This document shows positions 9,385 to 35,417 of a DNA stretch of 37,480 nucleotides, one piece after another; positions within the stretch are counted from its first letter, which is position 1, and each line of letters starts with the position of its first letter. The notes under the pieces were generated by a model. That model made no database searches. It was not told where the DNA came from and was given only the letters and a program-made list of their open reading frames with translations. The DNA lies in assembly GCA_048882325.1 (NCBI GenBank), contig JBHLRS010000015.1, positions 1-37,480 on the forward strand, read 5' to 3'. Origin of the DNA: Candidatus Thorarchaeota archaeon. Its GTDB lineage: Archaea; Asgardarchaeota; Thorarchaeia; Thorarchaeales; Thorarchaeaceae. The translations under genes and the position numbers were made by a program.

Positions 9385-12054
9385 TCACCTCCGACGGAGT
9401 CGTGGGTTCGTTACCTCATCCAAACCAAAGCCAAGGAATGAGATTCCAACTAGGAATGCGATAATGGCATACCCCGGAGACATTACCAGCCAATCCATTC
9501 CCAGAGATATTCCCTGATTGTAGGCCAAAAACAACAGTGATCCCCAGCTGACTATTGCAGGATCTCCAAGACCAACGAAGTCCAGAGATATCTCAAAGAA
9601 TATCGAGTTCATGACAAGCAATACCGTCTGGACAATGATTAGTGGGAGAACTGCAGGAAGCACATGTCGTGTCATTATATAGAAATTCCCACCTCCGACT
9701 GAACGAATTCTTTCAATGTATCCTCTCTCCTTGATTGAAAGGACCTGTCCCCTCACAATTCTTGCGGTAGTTGCCCATGAGAAAATTCCTATCACAATGA
9801 GCATTGTTGTGAGCGAAGGTCCAACAACTGCTGCAACTATGATCATCAAGACGAAGCTGGGAATTACAAAGAACAGGTCTGTGAAGCGCATAAGGAGTGA
9901 GTCAACTCTTCCACCATAATATCCAGAAACCAAGCCTATGGTTGCACCTATCGAGATGGAAATGATTGTGGCTAAGATGCCTATCATGAGTGTGATTCTC
10001 GTACCAATTATTATGCCGCTGAACAGATCATGTCCTAACTGGTCAGTTCCAAGCAGATGAAAATCTGTGATGCCAGTAGGCTGATAGGTCATGAGTTGAT
10101 ACAGGCTGAAGATCAAGACTGATCCACCAATTAGCAATAAAGAGAATGAACCAAGTCTTGAGCGAAGCTGGCTCATCGAAGGCCTGTCTTTACCTCTGTT
10201 TTTCAGTATTTGCCTTATGCCAATGAAAGCTCCAAAACAGAGTATGAACAGAGCTCCGACCAAAGAGGGTATTTTCCCCTTTTGTAGTGATGCCAGTCCT
10301 AACACGACTCCCAATTCACAAAGAAGTAGGCCATAGCCGATGCTTCGCATAGGTCCTGGAAGTTGTGATATGCGTCTTCTGTTTGAGTAGAACCATAGAA
10401 ATCCTCCAAGGACTAGAATTAACAGCGCAATCATCAGAGTAAGTCCTATTTCAAATGGTAGAGGGGTGGGTGGAGAGAACGGAAGTCCAGCTAGGATCTG
10501 CTGTGGGTCGTACGGAGCAATAATATCACCAAATACTGCAATCCCAGCAAAAATCCCTACAACAATAAGCCCCGCAAGACCAAGTCTGTTTGCAGCAATT
10601 TCTCCATACACTGAACCTACTCTGTCTGGTCGTTCTACGATTGTTCCAACTAATCGGAGGGCTACACCCACCAGCATCAGGTTTATTCCAATTCCCCATG
10701 TCCCTCCACTGAACCAAACTATGTTTAAAATAATGGAAACCACCAACGTTGAGAGCAGAAAGAACCCAATCAGGAGTAGAAGGTTTGCTAGTCTCTCAAT
10801 CAGTTTCACCCGTCTTTTTCTCCATGTGAACTTGAGATTCGCTAATCTATATGGGTAAAACAATATCCGCAGGTAGCCAAGCACACGCCTTCGTTCGATT
10901 ATTATTACTGCAACAGAGGTTAAGAGAATCAATTCCAGTATTATTCTCGGAGTGACAACTAGCGCAAAGATATCGATCAATACAAGACAGATAAGAAAGA
11001 TGACTGTGAGAGTAGGTCGCTTCCGTGCAATCACCGACTTACCCTGCTCGGTGAGTTTTGTTGGCCCCTCTACACGAATTCTAGGATCCATATAGTAGTA
11101 CAAGAAATCTGCTATGACATTTGTGACTACAAGGACCACTGTGAATACAAAGAACGTTGCTTGCAACAGAGGATAGTCTCTATGCACAACAGCATCCCAA
11201 ATGAGACGTCCAATACCATGATAGTTGAAGACAATCTCAATGAGTAAGGCTCCAACGACGGAGAATCCTATTTGAATAGCGATGACTGTTGCAACAGGAA
11301 TCCTAGCATTGGGTACAGCCTCTTTGTTGAGTTGGTCCTTATCAGACAGACCTTTTGCCTTTGCAGTGAGCATATAATCCTCACTTATGACATCTAGGAG
11401 AGAGTTTCTCATGATTAAGGTGAATACTCCAAAAATGACAATCGCAAGAATCAACACTGGTAAGAAAAGGTGAGCTATTGCATCCACCGCAAAACCAAGT
11501 ATGTTGCTCCCATAATCTTCGAACGACCCTACGAGGTTGTACGGATCTGTGGGGACAATTTGGAGTCTGAAACCAAAGATAAGAACTGCAATCATGGCTA
11601 GCCAAAATCCAGGGATTGCGTATGTGACAAGTGAAATGAAGAGTCCAACAACATCACGGAGCTTTCCTCGATGCCATGCAGAATTTTTGCCAATCCATAT
11701 GCCTAAACCTATGGCAATTAAATCAGCAGGAATCATCAAGAATAGAGTGTTAATCAATCGTTTTCCTATAATTGCCCCGATTGCAAACTCTTCACCATAG
11801 AAAAACGAGACACCAAAATTGCCTTGTAAGAAATTTGATATGAATCTAACAAACTGAATGTGTAAAGGTAAATCTAGTCCGAATTGTCGTATTATCTGTT
11901 GAATTACTCCCGCGCCGAGGTTAGGATTGTTAGCAAGTCGGTCCACAATACTACCTGGCATTAAATGAAAAATGGCGAAATCGATTGCTAGTACAACGAA
12001 AATCGTGACTACTGCTTGTAATGTTCTTTTTACCAATAAATCTCTCAAAGCCAC
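9385..12054 (-). CDS. Fused DppB-DppC (OppB-OppC) ABC permease with extra transmembrane insertions
   Basis: N-terminal half has DYMLTAKAKGL...RDYPLLQ...DPRIR (DppB-like); C-terminal half has APYDP, LLGTDQLGHD, YIERIRSVGG, SWG, NPRLRRR (DppC-like). Confidence 0.9.
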   Translation of the reverse strand: MALRDLLVKRTLQAVVTIFVVLAIDFAIFHLMPGSIVDRLANNPNLGAGVIQQIIRQFGLDLPLHIQFVRFISNFLQGNFGVSFFYGEEFAIGAIIGKRLINTLFLMIPADLIAIGLGIWIGKNSAWHRGKLRDVVGLFISLVTYAIPGFWLAMIAVLIFGFRLQIVPTDPYNLVGSFEDYGSNILGFAVDAIAHLFLPVLILAIVIFGVFTLIMRNSLLDVISEDYMLTAKAKGLSDKDQLNKEAVPNARIPVATVIAIQIGFSVVGALLIEIVFNYHGIGRLIWDAVVHRDYPLLQATFFVFTVVLVVTNVIADFLYYYMDPRIRVEGPTKLTEQGKSVIARKRPTLTVIFLICLVLIDIFALVVTPRIILELILLTSVAVIIIERRRVLGYLRILFYPYRLANLKFTWRKRRVKLIERLANLLLLIGFFLLSTLVVSIILNIVWFSGGTWGIGINLMLVGVALRLVGTIVERPDRVGSVYGEIAANRLGLAGLIVVGIFAGIAVFGDIIAPYDPQQILAGLPFSPPTPLPFEIGLTLMIALLILVLGGFLWFYSNRRRISQLPGPMRSIGYGLLLCELGVVLGLASLQKGKIPSLVGALFILCFGAFIGIRQILKNRGKDRPSMSQLRSRLGSFSLLLIGGSVLIFSLYQLMTYQPTGITDFHLLGTDQLGHDLFSGIIIGTRITLMIGILATIISISIGATIGLVSGYYGGRVDSLLMRFTDLFFVIPSFVLMIIVAAVVGPSLTTMLIVIGIFSWATTARIVRGQVLSIKERGYIERIRSVGGGNFYIMTRHVLPAVLPLIIVQTVLLVMNSIFFEISLDFVGLGDPAIVSWGSLLFLAYNQGISLGMDWLVMSPGYAIIAFLVGISFLGFGLDEVTNPRLRRR

Positions 12055-27112: not shown

Positions 27113-28846
27113 ATGAGATTTAGAAATGGACTGAGAGCACTAGTAGTGGTATCTCTATTGGTATCACTTACGATTTCGTTAACCGCTTATGAAACAGAAT
27201 CTAGGAGTTTGGTTCATGGTTTCTCTATCCAAGACAACCTTGGTTATGCCATAACTGGATCGAGATATGATGGTGATCTTGGAGCTCACTTTAGTTGGAT
27301 TGATGATGTCAATGGCGATGCGATAGATGACTTCATCGTGAGTGCACCTTCGTTCACATATGCTAATGACCCAGGAAGAGTGTATTTGTTTCATGGAAAA
27401 CATGACCTATTATGGAACGAAATGACTTTAGCAGACGCTCAAGCCTCCTTCATTGGAGAAGTAGATGACGATTGGTTTGGAAGGTGGACTACAGGGCTTG
27501 GGGACATTGATGGGAACGGGTTTTCAGACTTCGCAATCTCAGCTATACGCAATGATGAAGTGGCTTTACATTCAGGAAAAGTCTACATCTATTTCGGTGA
27601 TTCGAATGTAAGTTGGGCATTAGATACGCCAGCAAACAAGTGCAACATCTCCATTACAGGAGAAGCAGCTGAAGATGCTTTGGGACATGGGGTATATGGC
27701 GTTGGTGACATGAATAATGATAGTTTTGACGATTTTATAGTATCCTCATTTTCAAATGAAGGAGGTACATTAGCTGGACAGCTCTATCTCTTTTATGGAC
27801 GGTCCCAGAGTAAGTGGCTAAGCACTTATTCAGCAGCTGATGCAAATGCGTCTTGGATTGGGAATCCCGGTGATTATGTTTCGTTGGACGCAGCTGGAGT
27901 GGGAGATATCAATAATGATGGATTTTCTGATTTTGCAATTGGCGCTTGGTCTAATGCGGATTCAGTGTCTTATCGTACAGTGTATTTAATTCTCGGAAAT
28001 GATGCAAACAACTGGTCAATGGATCAACCCATATCATTGTCAAATGCCTCCTTTGTCGGTAGTAATGATACTAACCTGGCTGGAATGCCTTACTTCTTAG
28101 ACTGGATATCAGGAGCTGGCGATGTGAATGGAGATGGATTTGATGATGTGTTAATAGGTGCTCATGATGAGGACAAGGAGGGGATTGATTCTGGAACAAC
28201 ATACCTCTTCTTTGGACGCTCAACTGGCAAGTTGAAACACAACATCACGTTCTCGGAGGCAAATGCTTCCTTTGTTGGTGAGGCTGCAAATGATTGGTCA
28301 GGCTCTTCCGTTGGTATAGTTGGTGATGTAAACAATGATACGTTTTCAGATTTCGTTATTGGTGCGCCAACAGAATTTGATCTTGTTAGCGCAAATGGTA
28401 GAGGTTCTGCCTACCTCTTCTTGGGAGGTCCTTCAGGTACTTGGGCAATGAACACATCAGTCCTTCTAGCAAACTACACATTCAGTGCGGAAACTGTTAA
28501 TGATGGCTTTGGCTTCCATGTGCGTGGAGTTGGCGACGTCAACAATGATAGCATGGATGATTTTGCCATCGGAGCACCATACTTCGACGCAGGTTATAGG
28601 AATGTTGGCAAGGCTTACATTATCCTTCATTATGACCAACCATCGACATGGACTGTGACCACAACAACTTCAACAACCTCAACCACTTCATCATCAACAT
28701 CCACAAGCACAACTACCACCACTACTACTACATCTAATCCAACAGAAACTCCGCCACCATTTGATATGACAACATTGTTGATGATCGCGGTGCCAGTCAT
28801 ATTGGTTATAATTGTGGGTATCGTCGTACTGGTGAAAAGAAGGTAA
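27113..28846 (+). CDS. FG-GAP repeat (integrin-alpha-like beta-propeller) cell-surface protein
   Basis: Seven D[VIM][ND][GN][DN]xxxD[FV]x[IV][GS][AS] repeats; signal peptide; Thr/Ser stalk; TM + KRR; many N-x-S/T sequons. Confidence 0.9.
   Translation: MRFRNGLRALVVVSLLVSLTISLTAYETESRSLVHGFSIQDNLGYAITGSRYDGDLGAHFSWIDDVNGDAIDDFIVSAPSFTYANDPGRVYLFHGKHDLLWNEMTLADAQASFIGEVDDDWFGRWTTGLGDIDGNGFSDFAISAIRNDEVALHSGKVYIYFGDSNVSWALDTPANKCNISITGEAAEDALGHGVYGVGDMNNDSFDDFIVSSFSNEGGTLAGQLYLFYGRSQSKWLSTYSAADANASWIGNPGDYVSLDAAGVGDINNDGFSDFAIGAWSNADSVSYRTVYLILGNDANNWSMDQPISLSNASFVGSNDTNLAGMPYFLDWISGAGDVNGDGFDDVLIGAHDEDKEGIDSGTTYLFFGRSTGKLKHNITFSEANASFVGEAANDWSGSSVGIVGDVNNDTFSDFVIGAPTEFDLVSANGRGSAYLFLGGPSGTWAMNTSVLLANYTFSAETVNDGFGFHVRGVGDVNNDSMDDFAIGAPYFDAGYRNVGKAYIILHYDQPSTWTVTTTTSTTSTTSSSTSTSTTTTTTTTSNPTETPPPFDMTTLLMIAVPVILVIIVGIVVLVKRR
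28652..28735 (+). repeat. Low-complexity Thr/Ser codon run (stalk of the FG-GAP protein)
   Basis: ACx/TCx run encoding TVTTTTSTTSTTSSSTSTSTTTTTTTTS. Confidence 0.75.
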
Positions 28847-28848
28847 TT

Positions 28849-28883
28849 GTGAAGGAGAAGAGTAAATGCTCTTCTCCAATCAC
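28849..28883. terminator. Probable bidirectional terminator hairpin between convergent genes
   Basis: GGAGAAGAGT-AAAT-GCTCTTCTCC (28854-28877), outer GTGA/TCAC, then CCTTTTT. Confidence 0.65.
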
Positions 28884-28889
28884 CCTTTT

Positions 28890-30782
28890 TCACATAAGGT
28901 GTAACTCATCGATATCCACTTGAGATTCTGAATCTCTCAGAGCAAGCTGGTAGGCTGGTTGCACCATCTCCGAACTACTCTTCTTGGTGAACCTGAATGG
29001 ACTTGCAGTCTGACGAATTAGACCTCTCTCAACGAACTCCACCATATCAAGAGGAAGCCAGATATCACTGAAGTGAACCTTTAGGTCATAGTAGGGAATC
29101 TCACGCTCTTTCTCAAGCAAGCGAATGATTGGTTTCACAAATGTCGTAAGATGTTCGTCTAAGTAGTTCTCCATCTTCTCTAGAACCTCATTTATCACAT
29201 CCCAAGTTTTCTCAGGGGTATGGATCATATCTGTGAATATCGTCTTGAAGAATTCTGGATTGAACTTCAGAGCTTGTTCAGTTGACTCTCTCAAGGGTAT
29301 TGTTCGATTCATGAACACTTCTATGTTCGCCATGCGTCGTATCCCTGACATCATGAAGTTCAGTGCAAAGTGAGGATCATCCTTCACATAGAGTGCTTTA
29401 TGCGCCTTATTGATGAGATCTTTGCAGAAGACATAGTTTAGTAAGAGAAGATCCTCAACATCACGTGTACCAATATTCTGGACATCCTCGTAGAGGTCCA
29501 AAATGGTATCATCTCGCGAGAAAAGGAGCTTGCTCTTCGAGAAATATGAGTGGAAGATACTACCATCTTTGACTCTGTGAGTTCCCTTTCGGAAGTAGTC
29601 TCTGGTCAATACCTCTCCTTCGATGAAGACATCTTTCTCGATAAACACTCGCTGCAGACTGTAGGGTTCATCTCGAGTTACAATCATCACATCGATGTCT
29701 GACTTCTCCCAGACTGTGTCATAGGATAGACTACCTGCTAGCATTAGGTTGAGCACATATTCGTCCCTCTCAACCTTCTTAGTGAGTTCATCTATTGCAC
29801 TCTGGTAGTCTGTATGGACGCGCGATTGTTCGACATCAGAAGGTCCAATCCTAGTTGGAATCACATCGCTGGGATCGAATGAGTTCCAGCTAAAGTGGTA
29901 ATTTGGTTCGTTGTATTCAACTACTCCTTTCTTAGTGAGTTTTCTTGGTGACACAGTTCGCCTCAGGATTTTCCGTCTATGTAGGTGTTCCAATACAAAG
30001 AACCTAAGACCTCGTGGACCAAAGTACGTTTCCAGGTCTGTCTGAGTTGCTGAGCCCCCGTTCTCAGAAATGTAGTCTAATATCATCTTATGTGCATCGA
30101 TGTCGATAGAGTCCAAAAACTCGTAGGCTAACTTCAAAGTCCTCTCAAGCGACTCCTTTGTGACCTCGGTGTCTATCAGCTCGTCGAAAAGTATCGGAAA
30201 GAGTTCAGGTAGATATTCTCTCCCCTTGAGGATGACCTCCCGTGGTGGCCAGACATCGTTCAGATAACAGAGAAGGTAACCAAGCTCGCTCATGCCGTGT
30301 ATTACTGAGTGAAAGCTGTGTGCAAGATCATCCCGAATATAGAGGTACTTTTCAGCCTTCTCGAAGTCGTATCGAACTGCTCCGTGATAGATGATTTGCT
30401 GTAGTCTTCTGTCCCTAAGTCCGACCTTCTTACTGAGATTCTTGTAAAAGTCAGTAAATGAGCAATCTCTCGAAAACACAAGCTTGCTATAGGCAAGGGA
30501 CTGGAGTGCCCCTCTGCCTCGGGGACTTTGTATCCGTCGCATGAAGCCATCTCGACTATATACCTGAATGTCAATAGGTACTCCGTTTTCAATCAGACGC
30601 GTAGTCCTGTACTGTCCTTCATCCACGATGACAAAGGCGTTGATGTTCGATCTCTCAGTGACTTCATCATACGCCATGCTCCCATAGAGAATGATAGCGA
30701 GTACCCTGCTGTCTTGCTTCGCTCGCTCGATGAAGCTCGATAGTGCATCATCGAATTGCTTTCTGACCTGTGGATCTTCCAT
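28890..30782 (-). CDS. Internally duplicated Pol-beta-superfamily nucleotidyltransferase-like protein (2 x [NTase + helical domain + wHTH-like]; YgxA-like layout)
   Basis: Module 1 LYGSMAYDEVTERSNINAFV...SKLVFSRD...KLTKKG; module 2 LAGSLSYDTVWEKSDIDVMI...SKLLFSRD...RFTKKS; ATG 30782 after AAGGAG, 19 nt after the uvrA stop. Confidence 0.8.
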   Translation of the reverse strand: MEDPQVRKQFDDALSSFIERAKQDSRVLAIILYGSMAYDEVTERSNINAFVIVDEGQYRTTRLIENGVPIDIQVYSRDGFMRRIQSPRGRGALQSLAYSKLVFSRDCSFTDFYKNLSKKVGLRDRRLQQIIYHGAVRYDFEKAEKYLYIRDDLAHSFHSVIHGMSELGYLLCYLNDVWPPREVILKGREYLPELFPILFDELIDTEVTKESLERTLKLAYEFLDSIDIDAHKMILDYISENGGSATQTDLETYFGPRGLRFFVLEHLHRRKILRRTVSPRKLTKKGVVEYNEPNYHFSWNSFDPSDVIPTRIGPSDVEQSRVHTDYQSAIDELTKKVERDEYVLNLMLAGSLSYDTVWEKSDIDVMIVTRDEPYSLQRVFIEKDVFIEGEVLTRDYFRKGTHRVKDGSIFHSYFSKSKLLFSRDDTILDLYEDVQNIGTRDVEDLLLLNYVFCKDLINKAHKALYVKDDPHFALNFMMSGIRRMANIEVFMNRTIPLRESTEQALKFNPEFFKTIFTDMIHTPEKTWDVINEVLEKMENYLDEHLTTFVKPIIRLLEKEREIPYYDLKVHFSDIWLPLDMVEFVERGLIRQTASPFRFTKKSSSEMVQPAYQLALRDSESQVDIDELHLM

Positions 30783-30801
30783 ATGTTTCAACTCCTTTGG
30801 T

Positions 30802-33636
30802 TCAGGAAGATTCCACGACATTCTGGAGGTATTGACCTGTGTAGGACTGCTCACACTGGATGATGTCCTCGACTGTTCCTTCCACAATGACCTCGCCACC
30901 TTCAGCCCCGCCTTCAGGACCGAGATCGATCACCCAGTCTGCTGACTTGATGATGTCGAGGTGGTGTTCGATGACAATGACAGTGTTCCCCGCATCTACG
31001 AGCTTATTAATGGTCTTCAGGAGCATCTTAATATCCTCCATATGAAGACCCACACTGGGTTCATCCATGATGTAGAGGTTGTCCTTCAGTCTCTTGAGTT
31101 TCCCGAGCTCCTTTGCCAGCTTGATCCTCTGACTCTCACCGCCACTTAACGTGGGAGCTGGTTGACCAAGTTTCAAGTAACCGAGGCCAAGCTCCATCAT
31201 GGTCTTCGTCTTGTGATAGATGAGACGCGTGTCCTTGAAGAACTTGTTCGCCTCCTCGACTGTCATATTAAGAACATCGCCAATGTTCTTGCCTCTGTAC
31301 GTTACCTCCAAGACTTCTTCTGAGTATCTAGCGCCTTTGCAGATAGGACATACTGTCTGGATATCAGGCATGTATTGCAGCTCGATACGAACCAGTCCTT
31401 CCCCATTACATTCTGTGCATCTACCCTCTGTGGAGTTATAGCTGAACCTCCCTACCTTGTAGCCACGTTCCTTTGCTGTTTCGGCATCTGCAAAGAGTCT
31501 ACGTATCTTGTCGAAGAAACCGACATATGTGATTGGAGTCGAACGTGAATGCCTACCAATAGGCGACTGGTCCACAATTCGAACATCCACGATATTGTCA
31601 ATGCCTTCTAGTTTGTCCAATTTGCCGGGTATAACTCTAAGGTCCCTCATATCATGAATGAGCTTCTTTCCGAGGACATCCTCAATGAGTGTGCTCTTGC
31701 CAGATCCTGAAACCCCTGTTATACAGATGAAGACTCCAAGTGGGAATTCTACATCAATGCCCTTCAGATTGTTCTCTCGAGCTCCTATCACCTTGAGAAT
31801 CTTGCCATTAGGTTTCCGTGACTTCCCAAAGTAGGGTATCTTCTTCTTCCCAGTAAGGTAGTGACCAGTCAGAAACTTCGGGTCCTTCACTACTTCATCG
31901 TACTCACCCTGAGCTACTATCTTGCCACCATGCGCACCTGGACCTGGACCTATCTCTATGATGTTATCTGCCTGTCTAATAGTGTCTAAATCATGTTCAA
32001 TGACAATGACCGTGTTTCCAGTGTCTCTTAATCGCTTCAGGATGTCCACGATTCTGTTACTATCACGCATGTGAAGTCCAATGCTGGGTTCATCTAAAAC
32101 ATAGAGCATCCCCATAAGCTCTGAACCCAGCTGGGTAGAGAGTTTGATTCTCTGGGCCTCTCCAGCAGATAAGGTACGAGCTCGCCTGTTCAGCCGCAGG
32201 TAGTAGAGTCCTATGTCCACCAGGAGTTGGATACGTTTCCGCAGTTCGAAAATGACCTGATTACCAGCCTTTTCCCTGTCTTTAGGAATCTTGACAGAGT
32301 CCACAAACTCAAGGAGATGGTTGACGAAGTACTCACCTAGTTCGTCAATGTTCTTGTCATCAACGGTGACCAACAAACGCTGAGGGATGAGTTTCCGGCC
32401 CTCGCAGTCCGGACATGTGTGTTCAGACATGAATCTCTTGTACCAGTCGTAGCGTTCTCCCTTTTTTCTATCATTCCTGTAGAATCTGTCTATGTAGTTA
32501 CAGATTCCCAGATACCTGACCTTTTTACCTGTGTCACGATGCCGATACTTGTTTGGCCAGTCAGGAGGCTCTTGAAGGATAAACTCCTCTTCAATACCAA
32601 AGAGTATCTGGTTCTGTACATCTTGTGAAAGTTCCCCAAATGGAGTATCCAAGTCAAATTTCAACTGCTTGCAGAGACTGTACATCCAATACTTCGGGTA
32701 CCACTGCAAGGCACCTTTTGGCAGAGTCTTCTTCGGGTCTACAATGACAAGTCTAGAATCTGCCTTCATGATTGTCCCAACTCCTAAGCAAGTGGAACAT
32801 GCATTTTCTGGAAGGTTTGCTGAGAATGCTCCTGGGAGAAGTGTGTGCATCACTATGCGATGCCTCTTACATCCAAAGTTCGAAAAGAACTTCTCCTTGA
32901 CTTCTTTGGATATCCGCTCATCTGAGAACTCAAACCGGATGAACCCACTTCCTACGTTCTTTGCGTTCTCTATTGATATTGCAAACTGATGATACAGATC
33001 CTTCTTGATGATAATCCGATCGACAAGAACTTCGATTCGATAGTCCTTTTCTTCATCAAGTTCGATCTTGTCACTGATGGAGAATGACTCACCATCAACC
33101 TTGATCCGCTTGTAGCCCTTCGTTCGAATGTCATCGAAGAGGTATGGATAGTCCTCATCATAGATCTTGTTCACAGGAGCAAGAATCTCAACACTAGTCC
33201 CCTCTGGGAGTGTCATGAGGTGATCAACAATTTGGTTTGCATTACGTGTATGGATCTTCTTGTTGCAGTATGGACAATGCGCCTGTCCGAGTACAGAGAA
33301 CAGGATTCTCATGTAGCTCGATATATCTGTCATACTGCCCACACTTGATCTCGGATTCTGTGTTCCAGTCCTCTGTTGGATTGCAACAACTGGAGATAGT
33401 CCAAGTATCGAGTCAACATCCGCTCGTTCCAACATCGGTAGCATGGTACGAGAGGTTGCTGACATGGACTCGAAGAACTTACGCTGTCCCTCTGAGAAAA
33501 TAACATCAAAAGCCAGCGACGTTTTCCCCGATCCTGACACACCTGTGACAACTGTCAGTTTGTCTCGGGGAATATCCACATCTATATTCTTTAGATTATT
33601 CGTCCTAGCACCCTTTACACTAATGTGTTCTCTCAT
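30802..33636 (-). CDS. uvrA: Excinuclease ABC subunit A-like ABC ATPase (divergent UvrA)
   Basis: [55 protein letters not shown] x2, Zn ligands CPYC..CKRH, CSTC..CPDC, CTEC..CPIC; ATG 33636 after GGGAGG. Confidence 0.92.
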
Positions 33637-33652
33637 GCAATCATGCCTCCCC

Positions 33653-33708
33653 ACATCAGTTCTACCATATGCCTCCATTCGCGATGAAGGGGCAGTATAG
33701 CCTGATGT
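33653..33708 (-). promoter_or_regulatory. Extended stem-loop in the 5' leader of uvrA
   Basis: Minus strand ACATCAG/CTGATGT, GCTATA/TATGGT, TGCC/GGCA, TTCAT/ATGGA closing loop CGCGA; ends directly before the RBS. Confidence 0.5.
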
Positions 33709-33718
33709 CAGCTTGAGG

Positions 33719-33737
33719 TTTCTCACGATATGAGAAA
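33719..33737. promoter_or_regulatory. Operator-like inverted repeat in the uvrA divergent promoter region
   Basis: TTTCTCA-CGATA-TGAGAAA. Confidence 0.45.
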
Positions 33738-33835
33738 GTAGTCACGACTCACAAGTGAACGGTATATACATTATTTGGTCTCAGTAGAAACCAATTACCA
33801 ATACATTGATATTCATAACTATAGTTAACTAACTG

Positions 33836-34120: not shown

Positions 34121-34286
34121 ACCTCACTAGAGTGAACGTTACGTGCATGATTTGTTTTCAATGGGAACTGAAAGGTTTCGGTGAGATAATTCTCAATTCA
34201 GTGTCGCGTAGCAATATCGAAAATCATCATTTGGAATTAATAGAAACACAATACCATCTTAAGTGGAATTGACTTTGAGTTATTCG

Positions 34287-34724
34287 ATGTTCGATATAGA
34301 GGTTGCTACCCGGGAGGACTTGAAGGATATCAAGAAACTCCTAGAATCAATTGAAATCCCTTCTGATGAGATAGATCCGGAAGTTACAACGTTTTTTGTT
34401 ATGCGTGATGTCTCCAGAAGAATCATAGCATGTGTTGGACTTGAACTCTTTACAGACGCCGCATTAATCACCTCATTCGCCATTGAGCCCGCTCATCGTG
34501 GTGATGGACTTGGTGCAAGTCTTGTAGACAGGAGCCTGGAAGAAGCTTTGCAAGCCGGCTCAGATGCTGTGTACCTGTGCACAGCGCAAGCTCCTGAATT
34601 ATTCCTGAACATCGGTTTCGTCAACATCGACCGAGATGAACTACCACAAGAAATACGGGGATCGTATGTGTTTAAGAGTGACTGTCCCTTTGTTGCTGCA
34701 TACATGAAGAAGAGCACCTACTGA
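34287..34724 (+). CDS. GNAT N-acetyltransferase (ArsN2/ArgA-like), copy 1
   Basis: IACVGLE, HRGDGLG acetyl-CoA motif, VYLCT, C-terminal CP. Confidence 0.85.
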   Translation: MFDIEVATREDLKDIKKLLESIEIPSDEIDPEVTTFFVMRDVSRRIIACVGLELFTDAALITSFAIEPAHRGDGLGASLVDRSLEEALQAGSDAVYLCTAQAPELFLNIGFVNIDRDELPQEIRGSYVFKSDCPFVAAYMKKSTY

Positions 34725-34979: not shown

Positions 34980-35417
34980 ATGCTTAATATTGAAACAGCA
35001 TCATTTGAGGATATTGAAGACATCAAAAACCTTTTAGACTCAGCTGAAGTGCCCTCAGATGATATAGACCCAGATTTCACTACATTCTTTATTGTGCGTG
35101 ATGACTCCAAGAAGATTATAGCTTGCATCGGTCTTGAAATATTCACTGGTACTGCACTACTGACTTCGTTTGCTGTTGACCCAGACCACAGAGGAGATGG
35201 AATTGGAGTTAATCTTGTGGACCGGTTATTGGAAGAGGCGTTCAAAAAAGGGTCTGAGACTGTATACCTCTGTACAGCTCAAGCTCCAGAACTTTTTCTG
35301 AGTATTGGATTTGTAGGAATCGATTTGGATGATGTACCAGAAGAGATACGTAGGTCTCACGTTTTCAAGAATGAATGCCCATTTGTAGCTGCGTACATGA
35401 GGAAGAGAACCTACTGA
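34980..35417 (+). CDS. GNAT N-acetyltransferase (ArsN2/ArgA-like), copy 2
   Basis: HRGDGIG, VYLCTAQAPELFL, CPFVAAYM; gapless alignment with copy 1. Confidence 0.85.
   Translation: MLNIETASFEDIEDIKNLLDSAEVPSDDIDPDFTTFFIVRDDSKKIIACIGLEIFTGTALLTSFAVDPDHRGDGIGVNLVDRLLEEAFKKGSETVYLCTAQAPELFLSIGFVGIDLDDVPEEIRRSHVFKNECPFVAAYMRKRTY

Follow-up and report, generated by a model that had tools for sequence, protein, structure and literature searches.

Few DNA damage sensors have been studied as well as UvrA, which is known to partner with UvrB and Mfd. What, then, does a UvrA do when its gene is followed by one that encodes a nucleotidyltransferase (NTase)? The question is raised by a 37,480-nucleotide (nt) stretch of DNA from a Candidatus Thorarchaeota archaeon (GenBank assembly GCA_048882325.1, contig JBHLRS010000015.1). 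The whole stretch, here called the window, is contig C15 of an assembly of 3.6 Mb in 89 contigs (93% complete). The pair lies on the reverse strand, with the genes and the gap between them as follows (lengths of proteins in amino acids [aa]).

30802-33636 (-), uvrA paralog of the NTase-linked clade, 944 aa (TIGR00630/NF001503 matches, motif alignment, trees)
30783-30801 (-), spacer of 19 nt between uvrA and the NTase gene, with an AAGGAG ribosome-binding site (sequence read)
28890-30782 (-), NTase gene, 630 aa

The UvrA reading frame starts at MREHISVKG, with GGAGG 8 nt before the ATG (sequence read), and ends with the TGA at 30802 to 30804; the ATG of the NTase gene lies at 30782. An earlier reading of the letters alone (here, the original prediction) had noted the 19-nt spacing, the NTase gene's own ribosome-binding site, and the lack of uvrB and uvrC in the window. 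All of this is borne out: the spacer carries AAGGAG, and neither uvrB nor uvrC was found within the 37,480 nt. It had known of no described UvrA-NTase system, and our literature search likewise found no publication on such a pair.

The pair recurs in other archaea and in bacteria, its UvrA forms a clade apart from the housekeeping UvrAs of the same genomes, and a complex prediction places the NTase on the domain by which UvrA would bind UvrB. We consider it very probable that the two proteins work together. The function that we favor, at a little less than an even chance, is a UvrB-independent response to genotoxins or lesions by a dedicated UvrA-NTase module, which would spend nucleoside triphosphate (NTP) on nucleotidylation.

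Conservation of the UvrA-NTase pair

The NTase of the window consists of two homologous modules, and its shorter relatives consist of one. In a survey of 201 Asgard genomes, the double-module NTase follows a uvrA at all eight of its loci, and the single-module form adjoins a uvrA at 10 of 10 genome loci. Two single-module families, f5 and f22, precede a uvrA at four of four and five of five loci, respectively. The named NTase homologues come from Thorarchaeota and other Asgard archaea. Three metagenome contigs (73%, 54%, and 48% identity) keep the UvrA-NTase pair while their other neighbors differ.

Bacterial relatives were sought with the motif [VI]WE[KE]SD[IV]D and a seven-row alignment as the query, with one genome per species. 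The motif scan yielded 436 related NTase loci, found in Armatimonadota, Chloroflexota, Gemmatimonadota, Latescibacterota, Poribacteria, Acidobacteriota, Planctomycetota, Bacteroidota, Bacillota, and others. The best 80 of these 436 loci were taken on the NTase motif alone, with UvrA disregarded. A UvrA is encoded directly downstream on the same strand in 72 of the 80, and three of the eight exceptions are cut by contig ends. The original prediction had hinged on whether the pairing is conserved in other genomes; the neighborhood search found it in Asgard archaea and in at least 10 bacterial phyla.

The converse search of the 201 Asgard genomes used the UvrB-binding-type domain of UvrA alone (segment aa 118 to 257) and returned two groups separated by a gap in score, with clade-type domains at 116 bits or more and canonical ones at 90 bits or less. 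The NTase is present in 16 of the 17 genomes that have a clade-type UvrA domain; in the lone exception, the UvrA starts 70 nt from a contig edge. Within the genus to which the window belongs, the NTase-linked UvrA copy occurs only where the NTase occurs, and this distribution is patchy (5 of 14 genomes).

A UvrA clade apart from the housekeeping copies

We compared 50 NTase-linked UvrAs with 17 others from the same genomes, which comprised housekeeping copies, fused doubles, and class II-like forms. In the FastTree phylogeny of these 67 proteins, the 50 NTase-linked UvrAs make up one side of a branch with a support of 100 and a length of 0.48. IQ-TREE under the C20 mixture model, run on 40 rows, recovered the same split (SH-aLRT of 100). 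The original prediction had left room for this being the genome's only UvrA, grouping with canonical proteins; the phylogeny instead places it in this separate clade. Members from Asgard archaea group together, beside members from Bacillota, which suggests transfer between bacteria and archaea, in either direction.

In five of five bacterial genomes, the NTase-linked UvrA (1130 to 1200 bits) is additional to a better-scoring housekeeping UvrA (1335 to 1500 bits). The genome of the window also holds other UvrA genes, and identity between the paralog and the genus's housekeeping UvrA1 and UvrA2 is only approximately 42%. The description of this UvrA as an orphan in the original prediction was wrong, since a canonical uvrABC cluster lies elsewhere in the genome. 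Contig C10 carries uvrC. In a genome of the same genus, the corresponding cluster reads uvrB-uvrA1-uvrA2...uvrC, and the 3' end of its uvrA2 aligns with the first 518 nt of C10. The window's assembly (93% complete) yielded no uvrB. Of the 201 Asgard genomes, 155 encode UvrB, and the seven other sampled genomes with a double-module NTase are all among them. As the housekeeping cluster is cut at the start of contig C10, the missing uvrB likely stems from an assembly gap and not from biological loss. We also considered the UvrA fragment on C10 as the continuation of a truncated UvrA on contig C59 (described below) and rejected this, because the synteny identifies the fragment as the 3' end of the housekeeping uvrA2.

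By its domains, the paralog resembles a canonical UvrA. It matches the family over the full length (TIGR00630, 1105 bits versus a cutoff of 730; NF001503, 1144 versus a cutoff of 1147), and Pfam recognizes the DNA-binding insertion domain as well as the following domain.

32926-33240 (-), UvrB-binding-type domain (aa 133 to 237), predicted NTase docking site (Pfam UvrA_inter, E = 6e-25)

The segment of UvrB-binding size that the original prediction had noticed between CPYC and CKRH is thus real. The full-length TIGR00630 match above the cutoff and the UvrB-binding-type domain are what would be expected of an ordinary housekeeping uvrA with an unrelated neighbor, but the two genes adjoin in archaea and bacteria alike, the clade stands apart from the housekeeping UvrAs of the same genomes, and the uvrB-uvrA1-uvrA2...uvrC cluster is elsewhere. 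We give this explanation next to no weight.

Residue patterns within the clade show what has been kept and what has changed. All 44 clade members aligned keep both ATPase sites (GxSGSGKS, DEPS/T, and the signature residues) and every cysteine of zinc modules 2 and 3. The first signature of the window protein reads LSAGE, as the original prediction had pointed out, but this is specific to the lineage and not a family trait, the clade consensus being LSGGE. In CKRH, zinc module 1 has His as its fourth ligand, as in 93% of the NTase-linked clade, versus Cys in 12 of 12 canonical UvrAs compared. In E. coli UvrA, combining R216A with E222A disrupts the surface that interacts with UvrB and Mfd (PMC3025350). 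The counterpart of R216 is Gln in the window UvrA, and the Arg is lost in approximately 90% of the clade, whereas it is invariant in the 12 aligned canonical UvrAs. The residue at the E222 position varies within the NTase-linked clade, which alone has E150 and Y159 as invariant residues.

The paralog shares features with both known classes of UvrA. With class I it shares its length, domain order, ATPase sites, zinc modules 2 and 3, insertion domain, and UvrB-binding-type fold. Unlike class I, it belongs to a separate clade, has lost the R216 equivalent, has His for Cys in zinc module 1, and adjoins an NTase gene instead of uvrB. Like class IIa UvrAs (DrrC, Ecm16, and Deinococcus UvrA2), it is an accessory paralog beside a housekeeping copy. 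Ecm16 acts without UvrB, UvrC, or UvrD against a DNA-binding drug and needs its own ATPase, and class IIa UvrAs have neither the first zinc finger nor a UvrB-binding domain (PMC9328131). Unlike these proteins, the NTase-linked clade keeps the UvrB-binding-type domain and zinc module 1 and has an NTase partner, and it does not include the class II-like UvrAs of Paenibacillus. The clade may thus represent a third kind of UvrA, in which the partner-binding domain that class II lost has been kept and seemingly retooled for a partner with an enzyme fold.

Other UvrA arrangements were seen in these genomes. In the housekeeping nucleotide excision repair locus of the genus, uvrB precedes a tandem of two full-length uvrA paralogs, and uvrC is close by (G087:C4:104920-112552; G103:C9). 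Contig C5 of the window's genome (69981 to 74804) encodes a single-chain tandem UvrA of 1,633 aa, which is also present in genomes G087 and G146. Its unit 1 is without the insertion domain (272 to 403) and its unit 2 without the UvrB-binding domain (127 to 246; family positions); the protein is conserved in the genus and sits on a long, separate tree branch. On chromosomes of Gemmatimonadota, Latescibacterota, and Poribacteria (L144 to L147), the housekeeping UvrA is a fused double of approximately 1,830 to 1,920 aa. Two complete units share one frame in three of the four, and the second unit is partial in the Poribacteria copy (L147).

Fold and active sites of the NTase

Each of the two modules spans approximately 315 aa. 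It opens with an NTase domain of the Pol-beta type, continues with a helical domain and a winged helix, and closes with a conserved tail that reads PxR[LI]TxKS...E.AY. The modules and their metal sites are located as follows.

29847-30782 (-), NTase module 1 (aa 1 to 312), metal site degenerate (alignment of 34 homologues, AlphaFold2)
30639-30650 (-), degenerate metal motif S-N-I-N (aa 45 to 48) (translation, alignment)
28890-29846 (-), NTase module 2 (aa 313 to 630, stop included), metal site intact (Pfam, alignment)
29691-29702 (-), intact metal motif S-D-I-D (aa 361 to 364) (translation, alignment)

The Pfam families Polbeta and NTP_transf_2 match aa 331 to 425. Among the 34 homologues, the GS...SNIN of module 1 is near-invariant. 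In module 2, G350, S351, S361, and D362 are invariant and D364 is present in 30 sequences; this module reads GS...SD[IL]D throughout, except for SDIG in four sequences that form one clade. The block GS...WEKSDID is among the best-conserved parts of the NTase family.

Double modules occur in two orders, each with one intact GS...DxD: dead-live in Asgard archaea and live-dead in Poribacteria-like bacteria. The opposite order implies that the duplications were independent. On these grounds, we lean toward the NTase being catalytic in this organism. The live site is one that we infer to join the DxD of module 2 with a K-x-E-K in the helical domain of module 1. Bacterial double-module NTases with an intact module 1 and a degenerate module 2 were observed at loci L078, L080, L107, and L109; at the first two of these, no UvrA was found within 4.5 kb.

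The AlphaFold2 model of the NTase (pLDDT of 90.2, pTM of 0.88) was compared with known structures using Foldseek. The best match is 3c18, a YgxA-like protein from Exiguobacterium sibiricum (Pfam PF22339), over the whole module (E = 1e-12, TM of 0.70 of the target). The NTase family profile finds 3c18 by sequence too, with a weak score (E = 2e-5), and the helical domain matches the YgxA-like "substrate binding" family. ANT(4')/KNTase structures come next (6nmk, 1kan, and 4ebj; E of approximately 2e-9, TM of approximately 0.7 per module). HalB, LinB, ANT(6), and AadA rank after these, and CCA-adding enzymes are among the weaker fold matches.

As in ANT(4')-Ia/KNTase (1kan, 6nmk, and 6un8), each module has an NTase domain and then a helical domain. 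KNTase is a homodimer, whereas the two modules here lie in one chain and form a pseudo-dimer. The protein further differs from ANT(4')/KNTase in its low identity (13 to 16%), extra winged helix, conserved C-terminal tail, one dead site, and UvrA partner. To our knowledge, nothing links the UvrA-paired NTase to aminoglycosides.

The Pol-beta superfamily fold bears on what the enzyme might act on. The superfamily includes enzymes that AMPylate proteins or add tails to nucleic acids, and HalB and CCA-adding enzymes are among the weaker matches. The NTase could thus have a macromolecular target, AMPylating UvrA or another protein, or adding nucleotides to DNA ends or gaps that UvrA has marked, in a specialized form of repair. 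The winged-helix domains could hold DNA, and direct contact between the NTase and UvrA is predicted. However, the best fold matches include the small-molecule NTases ANT(4'), LinB, ANT(6), and AadA, the helical domain resembles a substrate-binding family, and no nuclease, ligase, or polymerase was seen conserved beside the pair in the metagenome contigs and bacterial loci. A macromolecular target seems to us quite unlikely. That the substrate is a small-molecule genotoxin is a tentative assignment, which we hold at well under an even chance.

Some of the same matches bring antiphage defense to mind, with a UvrA-like ATPase that senses foreign or modified DNA and an NTase that makes a nucleotide signal or modifies phage DNA. 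The patchy distribution and the suggested transfer between bacteria and archaea would suit such a role. The NTase weakly resembles Hailong HalB and the minimal NTases of PDC-S09, and the C-terminal half of UvrA matches mad3 of MADS. However, these matches to the defense libraries reflect generic domain similarity and fall far under the cutoffs: HalB (NF051895) scores 26 bits versus 190, and the MntA/MNT antitoxin of type VII toxin-antitoxin systems scores 23 bits versus 60, with UvrA and an FG-GAP protein, in place of a HEPN toxin, as the neighbors here. PADLOC, too, reported only generic ATPase and minimal-NTase similarity. The surroundings in the window are those of peptide and amino acid catabolism and not of a defense island, and no nuclease, pore, or HEPN effector is conserved nearby. 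We regard a defense role as improbable.

Predicted docking of the NTase on UvrA

A complex of the whole NTase with UvrA residues 115 to 400 was predicted in three runs, alongside three controls. The median score came to 0.69, against 0.00 for the highest-scoring control. This mark is reached by 58 of 80 solved complexes and by 2 of 110 mismatched pairs, a calibration that holds only roughly here because our own alignments were supplied to the prediction. The runs share at least 59% of their contacts, and the pLDDT of the partner is at least 69. The docking surface lies on the live module.

29460-29603 (-), predicted UvrA-docking surface of NTase module 2 (aa 394 to 441) (complex prediction)

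In the predicted interface, these NTase residues meet UvrA residues 162 to 224, including 216-217, 220-221, and 224. On the NTase side, the family alignment shows no variation at R394, R398, D406, D424, D429, G438, or D441, and some of the interface residues are invariant even across the single-module forms. We know of no solved UvrA-NTase complex, so recall of a known structure is unlikely. The model supports docking of the NTase on the UvrA surface that is used by UvrB, and the two proteins probably bind each other. The NTase is unlike UvrB domain 2 and the Mfd N terminus in that it has no similarity to either and is neither a helicase nor a translocase. The original prediction had suggested that the UvrB-binding surface was repurposed for this partner. 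The loss of the contact Arg and the predicted docking at this place speak for it, while the complex itself is a prediction.

A possible UvrB-independent response to genotoxins

We propose that the two-protein module would work alongside ordinary nucleotide excision repair and not within it. Having retained its ATPase sites along with zinc modules 2 and 3, the UvrA paralog should still scan DNA, where it would look for distortions. Its former UvrB-binding domain would hold the catalytically intact NTase module. On finding a DNA-bound genotoxin or an unusual lesion, UvrA would present it to the docked NTase, which would use up an NTP in transferring a nucleotidyl group to that compound or lesion; this chemistry and this substrate are what we infer for the enzyme. 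A bolder form of the proposal, which we consider conceivable and somewhat doubtful, is that the clade swapped UvrB for the NTase and loads a KNTase-like enzyme at the detected site, as a UvrB-independent branch of surveillance that acts by nucleotidyl transfer.

Two observations bear on the genotoxin. A second cassette in the window's genome (contig C59, 1 to 3089) encodes a regulator, a single-module NTase, and a UvrA on one strand with overlapping ends. The regulator, which leads the cassette, is a 300-aa protein with an ArsR-type helix-turn-helix (HTH) and a GyrI-like/Cass2 small-molecule-binding domain. The NTase has 312 to 325 aa depending on the start codon, and the UvrA belongs to the NTase-linked clade and is cut at 416 aa by the contig end. 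The GyrI-like regulator points to a role in inactivating small molecules. The other observation concerns the SDIG clade, in which, at two of three loci, uvrA and the double NTase are separated by a gene for an alpha/beta-hydrolase (278 aa) whose GESYG nucleophile motif is intact.

L016:7164-8000, alpha/beta-hydrolase insertion
L024:3352-4217, alpha/beta-hydrolase insertion
L023:3376-3522, remnant, first ~10 codons

The insertion fits, anecdotally, a small-molecule-inactivating role that another enzyme can take over.

Several findings weigh against nucleotidylation by a UvrA-NTase module. One Asgard clade is without any intact DxD (SDIG plus SNIN), some single-module forms read SNLD, and the third carboxylate of the NTase triad is poorly conserved; the lineages that have no intact DxD imply that catalysis is not universally required. 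One of the three complex runs scored 0.01, and their calibration is rough, as mentioned above. A conserved regulator was sought upstream of 67 bacterial NTase genes, but the neighbors there are heterogeneous, as far as crude picking of open reading frames (ORFs) in high-GC DNA can tell (ankyrin/globin in 10, AAA-ATPase/PDDEXK in 4, and singletons for the rest). No UvrA-NTase fusion proteins longer than 1,103 aa were found, in a search that is weak evidence, and the window's own cassette is without an adjoining sensor-regulator. Finally, some bacterial half-size NTases encoded directly upstream of UvrA carry an ECF-type sigma-70 or an AraC DNA-binding domain in the same chain, which speaks for a role in transcription in some lineages at least.

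The lineages without a DxD and the sigma-70 and AraC fusions make a regulatory or adaptor role possible. The NTase-like protein would then be mainly a transcription factor or adaptor, with a KNTase-like module that senses a ligand or nucleotide or is held by UvrA, and with the winged helix (or the fused sigma-70 or AraC domain) as the output. UvrA on damaged DNA might release or activate this factor in the manner of an anti-sigma system and so induce a damage or drug regulon. Alternatively, the NTase might recruit UvrA to RNA polymerase or DNA, as Mfd does via the same surface. The winged helix at the end of each module and the overlap of the predicted docking site with the UvrB/Mfd surface of UvrA agree with such a role. 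However, GS...WEKSDID is conserved enough to retrieve the 436 loci as a pattern, the two independent duplications each keep exactly one intact site, and the DNA-binding-domain fusions are rare (2 of the 80 best bacterial loci). Ada is a repair enzyme fused to an AraC domain, and such fusions therefore do not exclude catalysis. All things considered, we find a mainly regulatory or adaptor function unlikely. At one locus with such a fusion, in Clostridium sp. 19966 (L062:5061-7013), the AraC-NTase and UvrA pair is followed by a gene for a 650-aa EF-G/Tet(M)-like GTPase.

If nucleotidylation by the UvrA-NTase module is confirmed, it would be a new output of UvrA-type damage sensing and could reveal a mechanism of tolerance to DNA-binding natural products in microbes of soil, sediment, and sponges. 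Both proteins are soluble, and culturable carriers of the pair include Paenibacillus and probably relatives of Chthonomonas, Armatimonas, and Gemmatimonas.

Surroundings of the pair in the window

The pair is flanked by two noncoding features.

28854-28877 (-), perfect 9-bp hairpin 3' of the NTase stop, between convergent genes (sequence)
33637-33835 (no strand), intergenic stretch between uvrA and a divergent 94-aa ORF, upstream of the pair and presumed to hold the promoter (position)

The hairpin reads GGAGAAGAG-cattta-CTCTTCTCC and sits within a 43-nt gap, beyond which a convergent FG-GAP repeat gene ends at 28846. It had been recognized in the original prediction, which had also described the pair as bounded by a divergent promoter region. 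The divergent arrangement is there, as the 94-aa ORF is set 200 nt from uvrA, but the promoter is only presumed. Rfam and tRNA scans of the window returned no matches.

Beyond the 94-aa ORF lie two small genes for GNAT acetyltransferases (34263 to 34724 and 34980 to 35417, both on the + strand), divergent from uvrA; in other genomes, they are not conserved beside the UvrA-NTase pair. The remaining genes of the window belong to peptide and amino acid catabolism. One of them, an 889-aa ORF (9385 to 12054, - strand), holds two binding-protein-dependent permease domains, one OppB-like and one OppC-like, fused in a single chain, and adjoins two ATPase genes and a family-5 solute-binding protein gene in a peptide catabolism neighborhood.

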